A DNA stretch of 64,000 nt. It comes from Dehalococcoidia bacterium. GTDB lineage: Bacteria; Chloroflexota; Dehalococcoidia; Bin125. The DNA is taken from the NCBI GenBank assembly GCA_965243125.1, contig OZ251529.1, forward strand, positions 2,452,312 through 2,516,311, in the 5' to 3' direction. This document shows, piece by piece, positions 9,568 to 55,460 of the stretch. The translations under genes were made by a program, and so were the position numbers. The first letter of the stretch is position 1; each line of letters starts with the position of its first letter. The notes under the pieces are model-generated. The model was given only the letters and a program-made list of their open reading frames with translations. It was not told the DNA's origin and searched no databases.

Positions 9568-10074
9568 ATGACCACCGACGTCAAGACGGACATTAAGGCC
9601 GATCGGGACGCGCTGATCGAGACGATCATCAACGGCTACGGCCGCGCGGCGGGCATGTTCGACCCCAACCGCCTGGAGGTTTGGGAAGAGCTGGGGCTGA
9701 CGATGTCGCAGCTGCGGGTGCTGTTCATGCTGATCGCCATTCCCGGCGCGCCCGCCGGACTGGTGGCCGAGACGCTGAAGGTGCGCCCCTCCACGGCAAC
9801 CGGCGTCGTCGATCGGCTGGTCAAACAGGATCTGGTCACGCGGCACCGCGACGAGGACGACCGGCGGCGCGTGCGCGTCTATCTCACCGAGCGCGGGCGG
9901 GCAGTGACGCTCGACATCGAGGCGCGCCGCAACCGGCTGATCATGCGCAAGCTGTTCAGCAGCTTCTCGGAAGAGGAGCTGGAGGGCATCGGCACGGCCT
10001 TCAAGCTGATTGTGCGGGAGGGGGAGCGGCAGGGTCTGCTGGCGCAGTGGCCGCCGGACCCGGAGGTGATGTAG
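9568..10074 (+). CDS. MarR-family transcriptional regulator
   Basis: 168 aa with a winged-helix block (LTMSQLRVLFMLIA...VAETLKVRPSTATGVVDRLVKQDLVTRHRDEDDRRRVRVYLTERG). Confidence 0.8.
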   Translation: MTTDVKTDIKADRDALIETIINGYGRAAGMFDPNRLEVWEELGLTMSQLRVLFMLIAIPGAPAGLVAETLKVRPSTATGVVDRLVKQDLVTRHRDEDDRRRVRVYLTERGRAVTLDIEARRNRLIMRKLFSSFSEEELEGIGTAFKLIVREGERQGLLAQWPPDPEVM

Positions 10075-12689: not shown

Positions 12690-13010
12690 CTCAATCTCCC
12701 CCCGCGACGGGGGGAGAGGCCGGAATTTGCCCCCTACGCGGGGCAGGGCGGTCTCTGTGCTGTGCGCGGTGCGCCGAGCCGACCCCCCAGTCCGCTACGC
12801 GGACAGCCCCCCTGCATAGGGGGGCGACTTTCAGAGCGGACAGCCCCCTGCATAGGGGGGCGACTTTCAGAGCGGACAGCCCCCTGCATAGGGGGGCGAC
12901 TTTCAGAGCGGACAGCCCCCTGCATAGGGGGGCGACTTTCAGAGCGGAAAGCCCCCTGCGTAGGGGCGATTTTCAGAGCGACGGCCCTGTGTGTAGGGGG
13001 TGATTCCGAA
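12690..13010. repeat. REP/MITE-like element cluster (family A) including about 4.5 tandem copies of a ~31-bp unit
   Basis: 'ccgaccccccagtccgctacgcggacagcccccctgcataggggggcgactttcagagc' followed by the repeated 'ggacagccccctgcataggggggcgactttcagagc'. Each unit carries a stem-loop (cccccc-tgcata-gggggg). Confidence 0.8.
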
Positions 13011-30254: not shown

Positions 30255-32222
<1,968 letters not shown>

Positions 32223-32297
32223 CGCCGCCGCGACAAACGATAACGTCGGTCTCTATGGTCGCGCGACATCGCCGTGCCAGAGTTTAGTCCGTGCAGG

Positions 32298-33860
32298 CTA
32301 CTCACCGACCGGGTGGCCCAATCTGCAGTAGTCCAGCAGCTCCGAGTGGTCGTCGGGTATCTGCCCTGTACGTACTGTTCCGAGCTTGCCGTTCTCCGAA
32401 TTGACAAAGTAGCGGTCGAGATACGTCTCGGCGTTGACGGAGTGGGTACGAATGTCCCAGACCGCGCACATGAACGGCACGGTGCTGTAGAGCGGCGGCG
32501 TGCGATTGACGTACAGTCGCACCGTCCACTGTGACCGCACTCTACGGATCAGAGCTTCAACGCGGCCGTCGTCCACGCGGCGCGCAGGGGACCACCACGC
32601 GGAGCGGCGCTGAAACGGGCCGCCCGCCTGCGTGGAGACGGACCAATCCAGTCTCGTCCCCGCCGCTTCCTGCTGCCGCCATCGAACCGTTATCTGCTCA
32701 AGTCCTGCTTCGACAGCGATGCCGTTCGGATCCGCCGCGCCGGGAAGCTTGTTTGGCGGCGACGAGAGCGTGCGGACAGAGATGGTCGTGGGGGGCGGCT
32801 GCGTGAAGTCGAGCCAAAACCGCTGCGCAATCTGGACATCGAACTGAGTGTCGGGAGGAAGACCGCTCATCGTCGAGGTGACGATGCCGTAGCTGGTAGC
32901 CCAGCGGTAGGCGTTGCTGACGTCCCACCAGATCACACCTGGCCACTGGGGCGACGTCGCGGTGACGAGCGCGTCGCCTTCGGCTGCCAGCCATCTCATG
33001 TGTATCGTATCGTCGGTCGCCGAGACGGTGGGCCCGAGATCGCCGCTCGACGTGCGAAATCGCTCGATGTCGGACCAACGGATCATCTCCGGCGCGTTCC
33101 AGTCGCGCCACCAGCGATCCGCGCCCTGTTCTTTCCACCAGTCCAGGCCGCTGTACCACCAGTCCAGATTGAGCCAGTCGACGTAGTGAGCGCGTTCTTC
33201 CGGTGTGCCGAGGTGCCACACCCAGGCGATCTGCCATTCGTACTCCATATCGGGTTCAAGATCCGACGCATGAGAGGGCAGGTATCGCCTAGAGCTTTGC
33301 GGTTGCGGTGGAAACGGCATCGCGTAGCTCCAGCCGGCTGAACCGATCGCCCGATAGCGGAAGATCGCCACCGCTGCAACGGAGTCTTCGCTCGTCCGTG
33401 GCTTGACTCCCCGCGGCTCAAGGCGCACGTGAAGATCGGTGTATCCGACGATCAGTTCGGCATTCGGCGGCTCGCTTTGCGGCGCGGACGCCAGCAAGAG
33501 GATGCGGCTGTTGCGGCGAGTCTCCGCGCCGTCGGCATCCAGCACGCGCAGTGGTAGCGTCGCCTGCACGTGATCCAGCAGCACGCCTTCGAGAAACTGT
33601 GAGCGGATGTCGGCGCAGGACAACTCGATCCGCTTGGCATCAGTCGTGACGGTCCCAACCCGACCGACAGTCACGGTGTAGGGCGAAGCGCCTTCGAGCT
33701 CCTCCCAACGGACATCGACCGTGCCGCCGACGCCGCACCACGGAGGGTCGAACGAAGGATCCGGCTCCGGCTGCCCCTCAGCCGTGAGCTGGGGCGCCGC
33801 AACGGCGCAGAGCAGCGCGATCAGGGCGGCGAAGGTCGAGAGGAATGCGATGCGGCGCAT
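32298..33860 (-). CDS. Secreted Trp-rich hypothetical protein (possible FN3-like repeats), encoded in a lower-GC insert
   Basis: Signal peptide [24 protein letters not shown]. About 520 aa, rich in W/D; local GC is visibly lower than the flanks. The start is chosen at the signal-peptide Met; the track ORF extends into the duplicated acs fragment. Confidence 0.55.
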
Positions 33861-33943
33861 TGGACAGGCTCCGTTCGAGGTCTTCATCAAGCTAGACGCT
33901 CGAACGGACGCAGAGGTTCCGACCTGCCTGCCACGCGACTGTC

Positions 33944-34101
33944 TCGTCGGCGGCCTGCCCAAAACCCGCTCCGGCAAAATCATGCGCCGCATCCTCCGCA
34001 AAGTCGCCGAGGGCAACCCCGACGACGTGGGCGATGTCACGACGCTGGCCGAGCCGCAGGTGGTGGAGGCGATCATCGAGGGCGCATCGGACGCGCACTG
34101 A
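33944..34101 (+). pseudogene. Displaced/duplicated 3' fragment of acs (encodes the last 51 aa plus stop), direct repeat copy 2
   Basis: Encodes the identical peptide [50 protein letters not shown] with 10 synonymous substitutions relative to 32065-32222. Confidence 0.8.
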
Positions 34102-34159
34102 GGGCCGGCCCCGGCGCGCTACACTGAACGGGAAAGGCTGAGCGAGACAGGCGGACGCG

Positions 34160-34504
34160 ATGGCGATCATCAACACCCTGCGAATGCGCAACATCCTCGT
34201 GCGCGGCGAAATCGCCCGCGAGGAACCCGCCGACGAATTCGTCGAGGCGATGGACGACGAGTTCGCCGCGCTGAAGGAAGGCACCGTTAGCACGGACAGC
34301 CAGGAGGCGTCCGAAAATCGCGTCCTCGCCGCGATCTCCGACCTCGGCCGCCGCATCGCCGAGCGCGACGCCGAACAAGCCCGCGAAGCCGCCGAGCGCG
34401 ACCGCCAAATCCACAACCACATCACCATCGGCATCGGCCTGATCATCGGCGCCGTCACCATCGCCACCGCCGTCATCAGCATCGTGATCGTCGTGATCGA
34501 CTGA
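34160..34504 (+). CDS. Small tail-anchored protein (C-terminal TM), paralog 1
   Basis: 114 aa, MAIINTLRMRNILVRGEIAREEPADEFVEAMDDEF... C-terminal 'ITIGIGLIIGAVTIATAVISIVIVVID'. Near-identical N- and C-termini to the next ORF. Confidence 0.55.
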   Translation: MAIINTLRMRNILVRGEIAREEPADEFVEAMDDEFAALKEGTVSTDSQEASENRVLAAISDLGRRIAERDAEQAREAAERDRQIHNHITIGIGLIIGAVTIATAVISIVIVVID

Positions 34505-34546
34505 GCCAGCGGCGCCGCGCTACCCTGATCCCGAGAGGCGGACGCG

Positions 34547-34945
34547 ATGGCGATCATCAACACCTTGCGAATGCGCAACATCCTCGTGCGCAGCGAAATC
34601 GCCCGCGAGGAGCCCGCCGACGAATTCGTCGAGGCGATGGACGACGAGTTCGCCAATGTCAAAGACGAGTTGGCCGGCGCCTCAGACAACTTCGTGACCC
34701 ACAACGCCCACGAGGCGTCGGAGAATCGAGTCCTCGCTGCGATCTCCGACCTCGGCCGCCGCATCGCCGAGCGCGACGCAGAACGAGCCCGCGAGAGCGA
34801 GCAACGCGCCCGTGAAGACGCCGAGCGGGCCGCCGAACGCGACCGCCAGATCCACAACCACATCACGATCGGCATCGGCCTGATCATCGGCGCCATTACC
34901 ATCGCCACCGCCGTGATCAGCATCGTCATCGTCGTGATCGACTGA
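34547..34945 (+). CDS. Small tail-anchored protein (C-terminal TM), paralog 2 with an expanded central region
   Basis: 132 aa with the same N-terminus (first 35 aa almost identical) and the same C-terminal TM. The middle segment is longer and diverged. Confidence 0.55.
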   Translation: MAIINTLRMRNILVRSEIAREEPADEFVEAMDDEFANVKDELAGASDNFVTHNAHEASENRVLAAISDLGRRIAERDAERARESEQRAREDAERAAERDRQIHNHITIGIGLIIGAITIATAVISIVIVVID

Positions 34946-34969
34946 GCTGCGCGCGACCGGAGCCGCCCC

Positions 34970-35200
34970 ATGCCCCAGGAAGAAGAAGCACTGCGCGCCG
35001 ACTGGTTCACCTGGGAGTGGGTCCGCGATATCTGGGTCAGGCGCGGCCTCTGCGACATCGAGCGCGGCAACGAAATCATCGCCTACCTCGAACAGGAAAT
35101 CGGCGACCCCCACAACATCCTCACACGCTTCGGCCAGGAACTCATCAACCGCATGGTCCGCGACGGCCACAGACCCGGCGAACCGAGCACTCCCGCTTGA
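34970..35200 (+). CDS. Hypothetical small protein
   Basis: 76-aa ORF directly after the tandem pair. No motif recognised; retained only because of position and codon pattern. Confidence 0.3.
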   Translation: MPQEEEALRADWFTWEWVRDIWVRRGLCDIERGNEIIAYLEQEIGDPHNILTRFGQELINRMVRDGHRPGEPSTPA

Positions 35201-35561
35201 ATCGGCTGACGGACCGACTAGACAGCGATTAGTACGTGTTTACACAAGTCGCCTGCCAACTGGCGCGCATCAGATTTCGTCGTTCTCGCCTTGCGCGGGA
35301 ACTCATACGGGCGTCGTCGACTGCGCAGCGTCTCGTGCTCCGCACTCTTGCACGAGCACGCATCCGACACCTCCTCGCCATCCAAGCTGTGACAGTAAGA
35401 CGCCGCAGGCAGCGCAAAGGTTCCCCTGCCGCGTGGACGCCGTCATCTCTCCTCACGTCGCCTCCGCCAGATCAGATCGTCTGTTAGACAGACCACCAGG
35501 ATAGGCGCTTAACGGGACGCGGCGGTTCCGATCTGTCTGTCGCGGCGGCAATCCTGTGCGA

Positions 35562-36503
35562 TCAGCGGTGTCGCCCGCGCACCGTCCTCGTCTTGGGCAA
35601 GTCGAGAAACTGGTCGGCCGGCGAACCGGGTTGCCAGATCGTCCAGCGGTCGCTGGCGCGCATGAGCGCGTTGTTGATGGCTCGGATCTGTGGGACAGGA
35701 AGACCAATCTGTGTAGGTGTGGCCTGTGGCAAGCGGCTGATCATGAGCGCGCGACGAGGTGCAAGTGGAAACCAGAGCACACCTGCATGAGCCAGTCCGA
35801 TGTCCATGATTGGGCCCCATTCAGGGAACCCCATCCGCTGCGCGACTATGGGGTTGTCGGATGTGACGAACGCCTCGTTGATCAAGACGACCAGAACGAA
35901 GCTGCAAAACAGGTCTAGTTCATCGAGGAACGTCGGATCTACGCCGAACTGCAACGCAAGCAGGTCGTCTTCGCCGCGGGGCGATTCCCATCCTCCAGCT
36001 TTTAGCTCCTCGACAGATCGCCGATAGTCCATCTGGTCCTCGGCCGACCAGTTCGATGGTGGACCGTCTGCCATTAGTTCCACAGCCAATTGACGCTGCT
36101 CCTCTCGATAGGCAGTTCGCAACCACTCGCGGAGCGACCTCGTCCTGAAGTGCTGGAATGCGAGAAGTTGTCTGACTGCGGGGACATCACTGATGGTCAC
36201 CTTTCCTTGGTCAAGAATTCGACCCGTCAACTCGGCGTCGAACTCATCACGGCGAGCGAGGCGCTCTTCAATCCTGTACGCCTCGGCAGCATCCACAGAT
36301 GTCATCGTGTAGATGTCCGCCTCGACTGCGACATTCGTGACTGCGATTCGCTGGTGCTGCGTGTTGCTCCTGCGGTCGTACGCCACGACGTAGTCCTGCC
36401 CAGCTTTGGCCGATGGGTCGCGGAAGCGGCGCAGGTGCCACTGCGGGACGTAGTGCTGGCGCTTCGGCTTCGGCTGGCTCATTCCCCAACAGTAACTCGA
36501 CAA
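35562..36503 (-). CDS. DUF4238-family protein (putative single-gene anti-phage/abortive-infection factor)
   Basis: 313 aa. The N-terminal 'QHYVPQWHLRRF' matches the signature HY(V/I)PQ(F/W)xLxxF opening of DUF4238. The gene has visibly lower GC than the surrounding chromosome. Confidence 0.6.
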   Translation of the reverse strand: MSSYCWGMSQPKPKRQHYVPQWHLRRFRDPSAKAGQDYVVAYDRRSNTQHQRIAVTNVAVEADIYTMTSVDAAEAYRIEERLARRDEFDAELTGRILDQGKVTISDVPAVRQLLAFQHFRTRSLREWLRTAYREEQRQLAVELMADGPPSNWSAEDQMDYRRSVEELKAGGWESPRGEDDLLALQFGVDPTFLDELDLFCSFVLVVLINEAFVTSDNPIVAQRMGFPEWGPIMDIGLAHAGVLWFPLAPRRALMISRLPQATPTQIGLPVPQIRAINNALMRASDRWTIWQPGSPADQFLDLPKTRTVRGRHR

Positions 36504-36534: not shown

Positions 36535-37002
36535 CTACAGCAGGCGGCCGGAGCGCTTGCGGCCGGGGCGCGGGTCGTAGTTGGTCTTGAACATCTCCAG
36601 TTGCTCGCGGGCGATCAGATACTTGCCGCCGAAGAAGCGGGCGCTGATCCGGCCCTGCTTGATCAGCCGGCGCAGGCTCTGCGGGTGGATGCCGAGCTCG
36701 TGGGCGGCTTCGACGATGTCGAACCACTCGCCGAAGCTGGGGCGGGCGGGCGGGGTCGGCGCGGCGGGCGCGGAGTCGGCGTTGAGCAGCCGGGCGGAGC
36801 GCTTGCGCCCGGGGCGCGGGTCGTAGTTCGTCTTGAACATTTCGAGCTTGTCGTGGGCGATCATGTACTTGCCGCCGAACATGCTCGCGGGCACCCGCCC
36901 CTGCTTGATCAGCCGGCGCAGGCTCTGGGGGTGGATGCCGAGCTCGCGCGCGGCTTCGACCAGGTCGGACCAGCCGTTGAAGGGATCGTTGGGTGTGGTC
37001 AT
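36535..37002 (-). CDS. Tandem double excisionase-family HTH (HTH_17/Xis-AlpA-like) DNA-binding protein
   Basis: Two internal copies of 'W(S/F)D(L/I)VEAA(R/H)ELGIHPQSLRRLIKQGR(V/I)xAxxFGGKY(M/L)IA(H/R)(D/E)xLEMFKTNYDPRPGRKRS(A/G)RLL'. Co-directional with, and 31 nt upstream of, the DUF4238 gene. Confidence 0.7.
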   Translation of the reverse strand: MTTPNDPFNGWSDLVEAARELGIHPQSLRRLIKQGRVPASMFGGKYMIAHDKLEMFKTNYDPRPGRKRSARLLNADSAPAAPTPPARPSFGEWFDIVEAAHELGIHPQSLRRLIKQGRISARFFGGKYLIAREQLEMFKTNYDPRPGRKRSGRLL

Positions 37003-37110: not shown

Positions 37111-38271
37111 TCACCGCCGGGTTGCCAGCACCTCGTCTACGTCTTGGGCCAGCTCGGCTTCCGTGACGGCGCCCTCATAGGACGAATAGATCCGCCCCTG
37201 CGCGTCGATCACGAATACCCACGGCTCGCTGGGCAGGTCCCAGGCGCGAAAGGCCGCGGCCTCGCGCAGCGACTGCGGCTCGTGCGGATTCTCGAACACC
37301 TCGACATGCACCGCGAGCAGCTGCGCGGCGCGGGCGCGCCAGACCGACTTGACGACCTCCAGCACCGGCGCGCAGGTCCGCGAGTGGCAGAAGGCCGGCG
37401 TCGCAAACGCGACCATCAGCGGGCGGCCCTGCTCCAGCGCCTCTGCGATGCTCAGCTGATAGAGCGCCGGCTCCGGGTTCGGATCCGAGCTCAACTCCCT
37501 CAGCGATCCGACATCCGCGAGCGTGCGGCTCTCGACCGAGGGCGCGGCCTCGCCCTTTTGCGGAGCGGCGGAGCGCCCGCGCACACTGAAGCGGAAGCGC
37601 GCCTGCTCGCGCCGCGCGCCGTCGGCGCTGCTGATCTCGAACGCGATCCCCCACTCGCCGGCGCGGGTCAGGCGCACCGGCACGATGTACAGCCCGCGCT
37701 CCACCGCGGGCAGCCCCTCGGAGACGCTGAAGCCGCCCTCGTGCGCGTGGGGCGCGAACGCGGCGCGCCCGTCGCTCTCCGTGAACGCCACGAAGCGCGC
37801 ATATTGCGACGCGACCGGACGCTCCGCGTCGGCCTCCAGGTCGTACAGCGCCGCCCGCACCTGCGGGGCGGGCGCGTCGGACTCGCCGCCCTCGAGCGTG
37901 AAGGCCAGCCGGGCCACGCCCACCGCCAGATCGCGGGTGGCCAGCACCGGCAGCCAAACCGCGTCGGCGCTTATCCCGGCCAGCCACGGATCGCCCGACG
38001 GCGGGCTTGCCGCGCCGCCCGCCGATCTGCCTGGTCCACCGTTTCCACACGCCGCGAGCAGGGCCGTTGCAAACAGAACGAGCAGGCATAAAGTGACGGT
38101 GAGGCCGGCCGAAAAGCCGCTCGCGACGACCCGCGCGCGCAGCGCGTTCGGGGCGCCCGGCGGCCCGTTTGACAGCCTCGGCGGCGCGGCGCTACCATTA
38201 CCGCATAATCGTGTAGGCGACTGATCAGTTTCAGCGCCGAGGAGAGTGCTCATGGCGTACTCACGGGTCAA
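37111..38271 (-). CDS. Thioredoxin-fold (TlpA/ResA-like) lipoprotein; start uncertain
   Basis: Lipobox-like 'LLAACGNG', then a C-terminal thioredoxin-like 'FATPAFCHSRTCAP' (CxxxC) region. The track ORF uses a TTG start and overlaps the divergent small ORF at 38252; the real start is probably downstream. Confidence 0.5.
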   Translation of the reverse strand: MTREYAMSTLLGAETDQSPTRLCGNGSAAPPRLSNGPPGAPNALRARVVASGFSAGLTVTLCLLVLFATALLAACGNGGPGRSAGGAASPPSGDPWLAGISADAVWLPVLATRDLAVGVARLAFTLEGGESDAPAPQVRAALYDLEADAERPVASQYARFVAFTESDGRAAFAPHAHEGGFSVSEGLPAVERGLYIVPVRLTRAGEWGIAFEISSADGARREQARFRFSVRGRSAAPQKGEAAPSVESRTLADVGSLRELSSDPNPEPALYQLSIAEALEQGRPLMVAFATPAFCHSRTCAPVLEVVKSVWRARAAQLLAVHVEVFENPHEPQSLREAAAFRAWDLPSEPWVFVIDAQGRIYSSYEGAVTEAELAQDVDEVLATRR

Positions 38272-45890: not shown

Positions 45891-46517
45891 TCAGGACGCA
45901 GGCCACCACACATCGCTGAAGTCCACGACGAGCCCCGGCAGCACATCCTCGCCGGAGAGGGTGTCGGGGCGTTCGAGTTGCTCAGGCTCTTGGCCGGGGC
46001 GGTAGATGTAGGCGATGTCGTCGAACGGATCGATCAGCCAGGCGAGGCGCGCGCCGCTGTCGATCCAGAACTGCATCTTGTCGAGCTGGTCGGGCAGTCT
46101 GTCGGAGATCGAGCGGACTTCGATCACGAAATCGGGGCAGAGGCGCAGCATGCCCTCAAGGTCGCGGCGTCCCTGCGGCAACCGCGTGCCGGACACCCAG
46201 GCGATATCGGGCGCTCTGATGGCGCGGTCGTTGATGCGATAGAACCCGTCCGGCGTCGTCACGATGCCGTCCATGACGACGCGCCACCACTCGTACATCT
46301 GCCCCAGGATGATGAACGAGCGGAAGCTGCTGTAGAAACCCGCGCCGCCCATGATGATCAGCCTTCCGTGTTCGTCGACCTCGAAGCGCCATTCGGGGTT
46401 GAGTTCGCAGAGCTGCTCGAAGGCGTCGTCGGTGAACTCCCACGCCGGCGGCGTGCAGAGACGCAGAGGACCGGCTGCAACGGCTGCGGTTGTGACGGGT
46501 TTGGTTGCGGTGACCAT
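45891..46517 (-). CDS. Uma2-family (DUF820, PD-(D/E)xK-like) endonuclease, paralog 1
   Basis: 208 aa; 'FTDDAFEQLCELNPEWRFEVDEHGRL' and C-terminal 'PDFVIEVRSISD...AWLIDP' pattern of Uma2 proteins. Confidence 0.7.
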   Translation of the reverse strand: MVTATKPVTTAAVAAGPLRLCTPPAWEFTDDAFEQLCELNPEWRFEVDEHGRLIIMGGAGFYSSFRSFIILGQMYEWWRVVMDGIVTTPDGFYRINDRAIRAPDIAWVSGTRLPQGRRDLEGMLRLCPDFVIEVRSISDRLPDQLDKMQFWIDSGARLAWLIDPFDDIAYIYRPGQEPEQLERPDTLSGEDVLPGLVVDFSDVWWPAS

Positions 46518-46549: not shown

Positions 46550-47176
46550 TCAGGACGAGGGCCACCAGACCTTGCTGAGATCGACCACCAGCCCCGGCAG
46601 CACATCTTCGCCGGAGAGGGTGTCGGGGCGTTCCAGCTGCTCAGGCTCCCGGGCGGGGCGGTAGATGTAGGCGATGTCGTCGAACGGATCGATCAGCCAG
46701 GCGAGACGCGCGCCGCTGTCGATCCAGAACTGCATCTTGTCGAGCTGGTCGGGCAGTCTGTCGGAGATCGAGCGCACCTCGATCACGAAGTCGGGGCAGA
46801 GACGCAGCATGCGCTCAAGGTCGTCTCTGTTCTGCGGCAATCGCTCGCTCGAGACCCAAGCGACGTCGGGCGCGCGCAGCACCCTGCCGCGAATGCGGTA
46901 GAAGCCGTCCGCGCCGCTGACGCCGCCGTGGCCGTCGCTCTCCGTCCAATCATCGACCTGCCTGCCGAGTTTCACAGACCGGCGGCTGCTCTCGAAACCC
47001 GGGCTGCCCATGAACACCAGCCTTCCGTGTTCGTCAACCTCGAAGCGCCACTCGGGGTTCAGCTCGCAGAGTTGCTCGAAGGCGTCGTCGGTGAACTCCC
47101 AGGCCGGCGGCGTGCAGAGACGCAGGGGCTCAAGGCCCGCGACGGCGGGCGCGGAAGGCGTTGTTGCGGTCACCAT
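46550..47176 (-). CDS. Uma2-family endonuclease, paralog 2 (tandem duplicate)
   Basis: 208 aa, about 85-90% identical to paralog 1 apart from an 80-aa central segment. Confidence 0.7.
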   Translation of the reverse strand: MVTATTPSAPAVAGLEPLRLCTPPAWEFTDDAFEQLCELNPEWRFEVDEHGRLVFMGSPGFESSRRSVKLGRQVDDWTESDGHGGVSGADGFYRIRGRVLRAPDVAWVSSERLPQNRDDLERMLRLCPDFVIEVRSISDRLPDQLDKMQFWIDSGARLAWLIDPFDDIAYIYRPAREPEQLERPDTLSGEDVLPGLVVDLSKVWWPSS

Positions 47177-55259: not shown

Positions 55260-55460
55260 GGGCGGGGTCGGTGCGCTGGGGCGGCCGACCCCCCAGTCCG
55301 CTGCGCGGACAGCCCCCCTGCATAGGGGGGCGATTCCAGAGCGGACTGCTCCCTGCATAGGGGGGCGATTCCGGAGTGGGCAGCCTCCCTGCATAGGGGG
55401 GCGATTCCGGAGTGGCAGCCTCCCTGCATAGGGGGGCGATTCCAGAGCGGACCGCCCCCG
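55260..55460. repeat. REP/MITE-like element (family A) with a 4-copy ~31-bp tandem array
   Basis: 'gccgaccccccagtccgctgcgcggacagcccccctgcataggggggcgattccagagcggactgctccctgcataggggggcgattccggagtgggcagcctccctgcataggggggcgattccggagtggcagcctccctgcataggggggcgattccagagcgg'. Confidence 0.85.

Follow-up and report, generated by a model that had tools for sequence, protein, structure and literature searches.

MCUR1 and CCDC90B form a debated scaffold of the mitochondrial inner membrane, and to our knowledge, no bacterial DUF1640 protein has a known function. The DUF1640 membrane proteins of prokaryotes and mitochondria carry a β-layer at the start of their C-terminal stalk; the β-layer motif, [aliphatic]-A-T-K-[polar]-[DE], was defined by Hartmann et al. 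(2016, eLife, PMC4786415), who also tabulated the sequence NFVTKTEF of MPN010 as a solved β-layer. MCUR1 consists of a head, a β-layer neck, a stalk and a transmembrane (TM) domain, with its soluble parts in the matrix (PMC6801532). The eukaryotic paralogues MCUR1/CCDC90B and Put6/Put7 form hetero-oligomers and are inner-membrane scaffolds that affect amino-acid metabolism (bioRxiv 10.1101/2025.10.14.682030; PMC7519068).

We analyzed a tandem pair of small genes, copies A and B, in a 64,000-nucleotide stretch of a Dehalococcoidia genome (the window). Their products resemble the DUF1640/CCDC90-like proteins in several respects: the latter are ~100-160 aa long in bacteria and have a two-helix N-terminal head that opens with the pattern hydrophobic-D/N-T-L-R/K (FDTLKF.. 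as against IINTLRM.. here), and they likewise combine a neck at the start of the stalk, stalk lengths that vary by repeat units, a conserved C-terminal TM helix and an occurrence in paralogue pairs. However, the necks in the window, FVTHNA and TVSTDS, are degenerate relative to L-A-T-K-x-D, the stalk is built on an 18-residue (7+11) E/R/Ala repeat with a periodicity of 3.6, the TM sequence bears no relation to the LKWxFGTIGFQT consensus, and the family is confined to Chloroflexota. We suggest that both copies are probably tail-anchored inner-membrane proteins with a head-neck-stalk-anchor layout, belonging to a divergent, Chloroflexota-specific branch of the DUF1640/CCDC90-like group (MCUR1/CCDC90B, Put6/Put7).

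The gene pair and its domain layout

Copy A (34160-34504, + strand) encodes a tail-anchored protein of 114 aa and is followed, after a gap of 42 nt, by copy B (34547-34945, also on the + strand), which encodes a paralogue of 132 aa; both assignments come from the open reading frames (ORFs) and their translations. The first-pass annotation had described tandem paralogous small genes with an almost identical 35-residue N-terminus, and this description holds. In a pairwise alignment, 34 of the 35 N-terminal residues are identical, the sole change being G16 in copy A to S16 in copy B, and identity over all aligned columns is 89%. The C-terminal TM helix, which had been called identical, is nearly so: the segment reads RDRQIHNHITIGIGLIIGA(V/I)TIATAVISIVIVVID, with a single difference (V99 in copy A, I117 in copy B). 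The middle of the proteins had been called hypervariable, and its center is indeed divergent, but the divergence is confined to one linker/neck segment of 13-20 residues that includes a 7-aa indel and to an 11-aa indel in the helix. In the first of these places, a block of 13 codons (residues 36-48 of copy A) has ~12 substitutions, with seven extra amino acids in copy B; in the second, the E/R/A-rich helix of copy B carries the 11-aa insertion SEQRAREDAER relative to copy A. A long block, EASENRVLAAISDLGRRIAERDAE, lies between the differing segments and is identical in the two copies. Apart from the linker block, the indels, G16/S16 and V99/I117, the only remaining difference is one Q/R change.

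The order head, neck, stalk and anchor, with a single C-terminal TM helix, is present in both copies, as judged from alignments, hydropathy and AF2 models. In copy A, the head comprises residues 1-35 (34160-34264), the linker residues 36-41 (34265-34282), the neck TVSTDS residues 42-47 (34283-34300), the stalk residues 48-87 (34301-34420) and the TM helix residues 88-113 (34421-34498). The corresponding parts of copy B are a head at residues 1-35 (34547-34651), a linker at 36-48 that includes the 7-aa insertion (34652-34690), the neck FVTHNA at 49-54 (34691-34708), a stalk at 55-105 that includes the 11-aa insertion (34709-34861) and a TM helix at 106-131 (34862-34939); all of these features are on the + strand.

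GC3 is 0.89 in copy A and 0.86 in copy B, with a GC2 of 0.40 and 69% GC for the window and the genome. Outside the linker, dN between the copies is 0.012-0.014 and dS is 0.10-0.32, giving a dN/dS of ~0.04-0.12, and a word-indexed search retrieved 64 clusters of close homologues, none with a name or a Pfam domain, on contigs that reach ~3.2-3.5 Mb. Therefore, both ORFs are coding, and strong purifying selection acts on them outside the linker. The duplicated unit also takes in a leader of ~22 nt, with AGGCGGACGCG directly 5′ of the ATG; the leader of copy A (34138-34159, + strand) is repeated before copy B at 34525-34546, and a direct repeat, D15, pairs 34138-34267 with 34525-34654 at 95% identity. 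Promoter and terminator scans of the locus were uninformative.

Each protein has one hydrophobic segment, at its extreme C-terminus (2.9 in a 19-residue Kyte-Doolittle window); no N-terminal hydrophobic segment was found in either copy, the 19-residue maximum there being 0.64, so the tail-anchored character first proposed for them stands. Neither copy has a signal peptide; R, R, H and H lie ahead of the TM helix, and a single Asp is all that comes after it. On these grounds we predict an N-in/C-out topology that would leave the bulk of the protein in the cytoplasm. The variable segment, which had been taken to be surface-exposed, is accordingly predicted to be cytoplasmic. The predicted orientation agrees with the matrix-facing orientation reported for MCUR1 (PMC6801532). 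Core family members have almost the same TM helix, which is rich in Gly, Ala and Thr and has many small-xxx-small spacings; this conservation and spacing would fit helix-helix packing.

The AF2 models are monomeric and of moderate confidence. In the model of copy A (pLDDT 74.6), helices at residues 6-15, 21-41 and 45-113 were seen, with a break at T42-V43-S44. That of copy B, which was built from a shallow alignment (pLDDT 62), has helices at residues 2-18, 25-49 and 52-131 and a break at V50-T51 of FVTHNA. The copy B model was left out of the fold search, and a Foldseek search of the PDB with the copy A model gave no match at E≤0.001.

Probable relationship to DUF1640/CCDC90-like proteins

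The family is rare and restricted to Chloroflexota. An exhaustive HMM search of 1.84 billion protein representatives with the family profile returned 27 proteins at E≤1e-3, none of them annotated, and a wider profile gathered 153 clusters. Source names were given for few of these, and where given they read 'hypothetical protein' from Chloroflexi/Chloroflexota metagenome-assembled genomes (MAGs); the genome loci of family members are in Dehalococcoidia MAGs. Copy A is identical to a database protein (P0030), and the closest database protein to copy B is P0001, at 94%; looking up P0030 and P0076 by exact sequence retrieved no contigs. Many contigs carry two family clusters. Two very divergent members lie in tandem in another Chloroflexota genome, where the neighborhood is unrelated, and one more member stands alone amid metabolic genes. 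Single-sequence scans against Pfam, NCBIfam, PHROG and PADLOC gave sub-threshold coiled-coil/TM noise only (DUF4337, RIFIN, SCO2400, LeoC, PDC-M32B and phrog_594), with nothing significant for copies A and B, and searches of PDB sequences with the Chloroflexota family profiles found nothing relevant.

The first-pass annotation did not recognize the family; profile-profile comparison makes it recognizable as a divergent relative of the DUF1640/CCDC90-like proteins (PF07798), with hhalign probabilities of 94-96%. As a reference we used a consensus-like DUF1640 probe with 2,728 matches, nearly all of the 120 listed carrying a precomputed PF07798 domain, and an alignment of 32 genuine bacterial PF07798 proteins, the profile of which matches CCDC90B (6h9m) and 6h9l in the PDB. 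When window, core and remote members were combined, the comparison with DUF1640 gave 94.3% (E 9.7e-8) over 47 head and neck columns. The remote members alone gave 95.8% (E 7.4e-9), with stalk and TM positions among the 88 aligned columns, and the core and remote members matched each other at 99.3% (E 8e-21). Coiled-coil and TM proteins are prone to spurious profile matches; with reversed-sequence controls the probability was at most 2.5%. The comparison of the core alone (Neff 1.5) with DUF1640 was not significant. The similarity to genuine DUF1640 members is thus significant and collinear over the head and neck by way of the remote members, and the putative DUF1640 link of the core depends on these intermediate Chloroflexota sequences.

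The remote relatives have a head of the form MAII(D/N)TLR(F/L/M)RN(I/A)LV.G.IAEE.PA.E(L/F)V.ALDE, after which a short linker leads to a hexamer, in many cases L/V-A-T-K-x-D, and then to a variable-length coiled-coil stalk and a C-terminal TM helix. Of 60 remote members, 11 matched PF07798 collinearly but below threshold (15-18 bits, E 5e-4 to 0.02); in one example, residues 4-70 align with profile positions 1-70. The PF07798 gathering score of 33.5 bits was reached in none of the matches listed for window, core or remote proteins. PF07798 is absent from the Pfam matches listed for copies A and B at E≤10, and for 30 core members at E≤10 it is absent from the 25 most frequent of 49 families.

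The neck deserves separate comparison. Of 72 remote members, 19 carry the canonical [aliphatic]-A-T-K-[polar]-[DE] hexamer; none of 64 core members does, and these have FVT[KRH][DE][SA] or [TV][VI]S[TA][DE][SA] at the aligned position. This junction hexamer is similar to those of β-layer coiled coils such as Tcar0761 (MATKDD) and MPN010, and the FVTK form occurs in the solved β-layer of the latter. The copies have a helix break of 2-3 residues at the hexamer site in the AF2 models, and hhalign places T42-V43-S44 of copy A on the L-A-T of the DUF1640 neck and residues 3-53 on the head and neck. However, the last position in the core family is S/A rather than D/E, and T-V-S-T-D-S of copy A is a poor match to the β-layer consensus. 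From these sequence comparisons we hold, with moderate-to-good confidence, that the family represents a divergent DUF1640/CCDC90-like branch beyond the reach of the Pfam model.

Stalk length, linker history and recombination

Proteins of the family are 114, 121, 125, 128, 132, 139, 150, 157, 164 or 175 aa long, in steps of 7, 11 and 18 residues, and proteins with identical heads span 132-164 aa or 139-175 aa. Tandem repeats of 21, 33 and 54 nt are seen in the stalk at the DNA level, and the difference in length between copies A and B corresponds to helical repeat units of 7 and 11 residues. The apolar positions of the stalk, mainly Ala, recur every 3.60-3.63 residues, or 18/5, and therefore indels of 7, 11 or 18 residues keep the helical face in register. 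The Ala/Ile/Leu stripe runs regularly along the helix, and the stalk helix continues straight into the membrane helix. A remote subfamily is built on (V/I)DARF(D/E)R heptads, with lengths of 103, 110, 117 and 124 aa, and genuine DUF1640 proteins show the same repeat-driven variation in stalk length.

The divergent linker had been attributed to diversifying selection, which our results do not bear out. Between copies A and B, the linker has a dN of 0.90 and a dS of 0.74 over 13 codons; both values are saturated, so that the omega of ~1 is uninformative and gives no support for positive selection. In the flanks, dS is 0.10 (head), 0.32 (stalk) and 0.24 (TM helix). Between orthologues in the window and a related genome, L001, the linkers are conserved, with a dN of 0.034 and 0.044. 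The linker is therefore an old, paralogue-specific segment. Divergence between the two species, as measured by a dS of 0.137 in the neighboring acs gene, exceeds that between the two heads in the window (dS 0.10), and the two paralogue heads of L001 differ by a dS of 0.67 with the same protein sequence. From these values we conclude that the head and proximal stalk were homogenized by gene conversion in the window lineage and that the linker was spared. The linker types and the proximal-stalk types (AAISDLGRRIAERD and ASIEGLRREMAQE) are mixed in varying combinations across the family, which indicates a recombination mosaic. We propose that gene conversion would have evened out the anchor, head and proximal stalk between the copies, with the old linker/neck block being kept, and that the lengths of linker and stalk would have changed through repeat-unit indels of 21 and 33 nt. 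The low dS of the TM-coding segment also led us to consider constraint on its synonymous sites, an idea that was dropped after calibration with the acs dS and in view of an extreme codon bias (ATC 29:2).

The locus follows acs, a putative acetyl-CoA synthetase gene (30255-32222, + strand) recognized by its AMP-forming acetyl-CoA synthetase-like translation. In four related genomes (L001-L004), acs orthologues that are 94-99% identical lie directly upstream of family copies, the first of which begins 43-58 nt after acs. The conserved order in these genomes is rhodanese, DUF4352, HAD, acs, 1-3 family copies and a 76-aa ORF, and beyond the latter lie a variable stretch, a DUF4238 gene and a duplicated HTH_17 protein gene, both on the - strand. 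Surveyed across these genomes and the window, as the first-pass annotation had proposed, the number of copies at the acs site varies from one (L004) through two (L002, L003 and the window) to three (L001, where one copy is head-less and 91 aa long). A paralogue of 38-42% identity lies a few kb upstream in three of the four related genomes and is absent from the window. A functional link between the family and acs was considered and set aside: the adjacency is found only in a narrow clade, is absent at four other loci (L005-L008), and may simply be inherited. The 76-aa soluble protein encoded directly after the last family copy (orf76, 34970-35200, + strand) is a candidate partner of the family proteins. 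It is 59-95% identical in L001-L004, always directly downstream of the last copy; searches of Pfam, PHROG, NCBIfam and PADLOC gave no match for it, and the PDB none that was credible.

Several rearrangements were seen at this site. An insertion of 1.9 kb (32223-33943), specific to this genome and absent from L001-L004, lies between acs and copy A and encodes a secreted-looking protein of 529 aa with no family match. The insertion lies between 158-nt direct repeats of the acs 3′ end: a displaced duplicate at 33944-34101 (+ strand) is 94% identical to 32065-32222 (repeat D14) and, in a three-way alignment with L001, runs into the native intergenic leader between acs and copy A. The join between the right repeat and this leader is of the kind that a Campbell-type insertion would produce. 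In L002, a fragment of acs sits between the two family copies, and the GC content of the window at 32.2-36.5 kb (57-66%) is lower than in the flanks. The site is therefore recombination-prone, which fits the variation in copy number and the mosaic variation. An integrated mobile element was rejected as an explanation: no integrase was found, and four other genomes keep the acs-to-HTH_17 block in synteny.

Alternative readings and a putative scaffold role

ElaB, YqjD and YgaM of E. coli (DUF883) are stress-induced and ribosome-associated; they too are small, with a soluble, helical, cytoplasmic N-terminal part and a C-terminal anchor. The copies could belong to an unrelated but analogous tail-anchored coiled-coil family of this sort, sharing the gross layout in which a soluble N-terminal part leads through a helical middle to a TM helix at the C-terminus, in which case the similarity to DUF1640 would be convergence. 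Such a view is in keeping with the failure of copies A and B to reach the Pfam threshold, the lack of significance when the core and DUF1640 profiles are compared, and structure searches that do not discriminate. However, it does not sit well with the gap between the profile-profile probabilities and the reversed controls, with an alignment that spans the non-coiled head and superimposes the neck motifs, or with the canonical ATK-x-D motif of remote members; moreover, the DUF883 proteins are without a head/neck motif of the window type, and DUF883 is absent from the Pfam matches listed for copies A and B (E≤1 and E≤10). We consider convergence unlikely. Another reading concerns the stalk, which might be a monomeric single α-helix (ER/K-type SAH) that serves as a spacer, or tether of tunable length. 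The stalk has a very high E/R content and could form many i/i+4 salt bridges, its 3.6-residue periodicity is that of an unsupercoiled helix, and AF2 predicts one continuous helix. The regular Ala/Ile/Leu stripe, the near-invariant TM helix with small-xxx-small motifs that fit helix packing, and the homology to trimeric CCDC90B all argue against a monomer, and we find this reading quite improbable.

The first-pass annotation had instead pointed to small membrane effectors, such as holin, lysis, toxin or immunity proteins, with a surface segment under diversifying selection. In favor of that reading are the small size of the proteins, their lone TM helix and a tandem arrangement whose copy number varies; the locus is lower in GC than its flanks, an excisionase-like HTH_17 gene and a DUF4238 gene are nearby, and there are signs of recombination. 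Proteins of the XhlA type (PF10779) are small as well and combine an N-terminal coiled coil with a TM helix at the C-terminus, and weak matches to XhlA, to PHROG 594 and in PADLOC were obtained. However, all of these matches are far below significance (E = 0.45-2.8 for XhlA, in a few members), and PHROG, PADLOC and the Pfam holin families gave nothing significant. IMG/VR contigs and 50,697 phage genomes contained no relative, and there is no phage context; the neighbors are acs, orf76, DUF4238 and HTH_17, with no endolysin, integrase or phage structural gene nearby. The chromosomal locus is syntenic in the four other species-level genomes, the linker is conserved between orthologues with an omega of ~1 on saturated sites only, and the variable part is cytoplasmic by the predicted topology. 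A holin-like or immunity-like role therefore seems to us highly improbable.

We return to the DUF1640/CCDC90-like reading. Coding status, architecture, distribution, remote-homology statistics, repeat-unit length variation and the dN/dS pattern come directly from the tools used, and the steps proposed here are ordered by how directly they are supported. Each protein is made up of a two-helix N-terminal head (residues 1-35), a short linker with a helix break of three residues where DUF1640 proteins have their β-layer neck, an E/R/Ala-rich helical stalk whose 3.6-residue apolar stripe continues into the membrane helix, and a highly conserved Gly/Ala/Thr-rich C-terminal TM helix. The protein would insert into the membrane N-in/C-out and may then oligomerize through the stalk and TM helix, probably as a trimer like CCDC90B. 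The cytoplasmic heads would be held at a distance set by the length of the stalk, as a scaffold or spacer for some partner, and the tandem paralogues may co-assemble in the way of MCUR1/CCDC90B and Put6/Put7. By this analogy, the copies are most likely oligomeric membrane-anchored scaffold or spacer proteins, the scaffold role being extrapolated from the mitochondrial proteins. Hetero-oligomers of the tandem paralogues are plausible because tandem pairs recur and the eukaryotic paralogues hetero-oligomerize.

A bolder version of the scaffold reading, to which we give only a slender chance, is that the proteins are hetero-oligomeric membrane 'rulers', in which fast gain and loss of 7-, 11- and 18-residue repeats sets the distance of a cytoplasmic partner, perhaps Acs or orf76. 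If this were true, the metabolic scaffold of MCUR1-CCDC90B would have a counterpart in bacteria, and the pair would offer a tractable route to the ancestral function of the family. More generally, the locus adds what is probably a Chloroflexota-specific, DUF1640-related branch that is missed by current Pfam models and that has the hallmarks of the family in compact form: paralogue pairs, a conserved anchor and repeat-unit evolution of the stalk. Should the homology fail, this would be an ordinary uncharacterized family of small membrane proteins; should it be confirmed, the known distribution of DUF1640 would be wider, and the family would provide natural stalk-length variants with which to test whether length matters.

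An acs-flanked insertion upstream of the family copies

A 1.9-kb insertion (insert 32223-33943) lies between acs, the acetyl-CoA synthetase gene, and the first family copy in the window, and it is framed by 158-nt direct repeats of the acs 3' end (32065-32222 and 33944-34101), which are 94% identical. The insertion is absent from the four related genomes (loci L001-L004). The native leader from downstream of acs is joined to the right repeat (33944-34101), the arrangement that a Campbell-type insertion would leave. The insertion has no integrase nearby and carries a secreted-looking ORF of 529 aa on the minus strand (32298-33887) with no family match. GC content is 57-66% across 32200-36500, versus about 68-76% in the flanks, and this low-GC stretch spans the insertion, both family copies, orf76 and the DUF4238 gene.

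Downstream genes and other repeats of the window

The DUF4238 gene (35562-36503, minus strand) adjoins a minus-strand gene (36535-37002) for a 155-aa protein with two excisionase-like HTH_17 domains, which derive from an internal 246-nt duplication (36539-36736 versus 36785-36982, 84%). The two genes are kept side by side in all related genomes. Synteny with those genomes stops at the next ORF, of 386 aa (37111-38271, minus strand), which has good coding statistics (GC3 0.86) and no match in Pfam, PHROG or PADLOC.

A second tandem paralogue pair encodes 208-aa Uma2-family proteins (45891-46517 and 46550-47176, both minus strand; PF05685, E 6e-26 and 9e-29), both putative restriction endonucleases; their genes are 83-89% identical in DNA. 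REP-like palindromes rich in G+C (CCCCCCTGCATAGGGGGG and flanking sequence) also occur in the window, at 12804-12956, 55310-55459 and at least nine other intergenic sites (e.g., 17926, 22287, 28298, 29134, 40696 and 56484), in both orientations and in some cases as 36-nt tandem arrays. Different intergenic sites hold a second family of palindromes, TCTCCCCCCGCGACGGGGGGAGA.

Family copies in related genomes and the companion orf76

L001 has a third, head-less family copy of 91 aa (9683-9958), which starts at MNDEF, lacks the first ~30 residues and sits between two full copies. Because the head-less form recurs as separate clusters of family proteins (P0057, P0063 and P0064), it may be functional rather than a pseudogene. 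Between the two L002 copies lies an acs fragment (aa 583-608; 9855-9932), which suggests that the duplication unit once took in part of acs. L001 (1764-2117), L003 (4081-4440) and L004 (4559-4909) also encode, on the minus strand and upstream of acs by a few kb, a more distant paralogue with 38-42% identity and the same architecture; the window lacks it at the corresponding place.

Directly 3' of the last family copy is orf76 (34970-35200, plus strand), a soluble 76-aa ORF for which Pfam, PHROGs, NCBIfam and PADLOC gave no match and the PDB none that was credible. This ORF directly follows the last copy in every one of L001-L004 as well, at 59-95% identity, and is a candidate functional partner.
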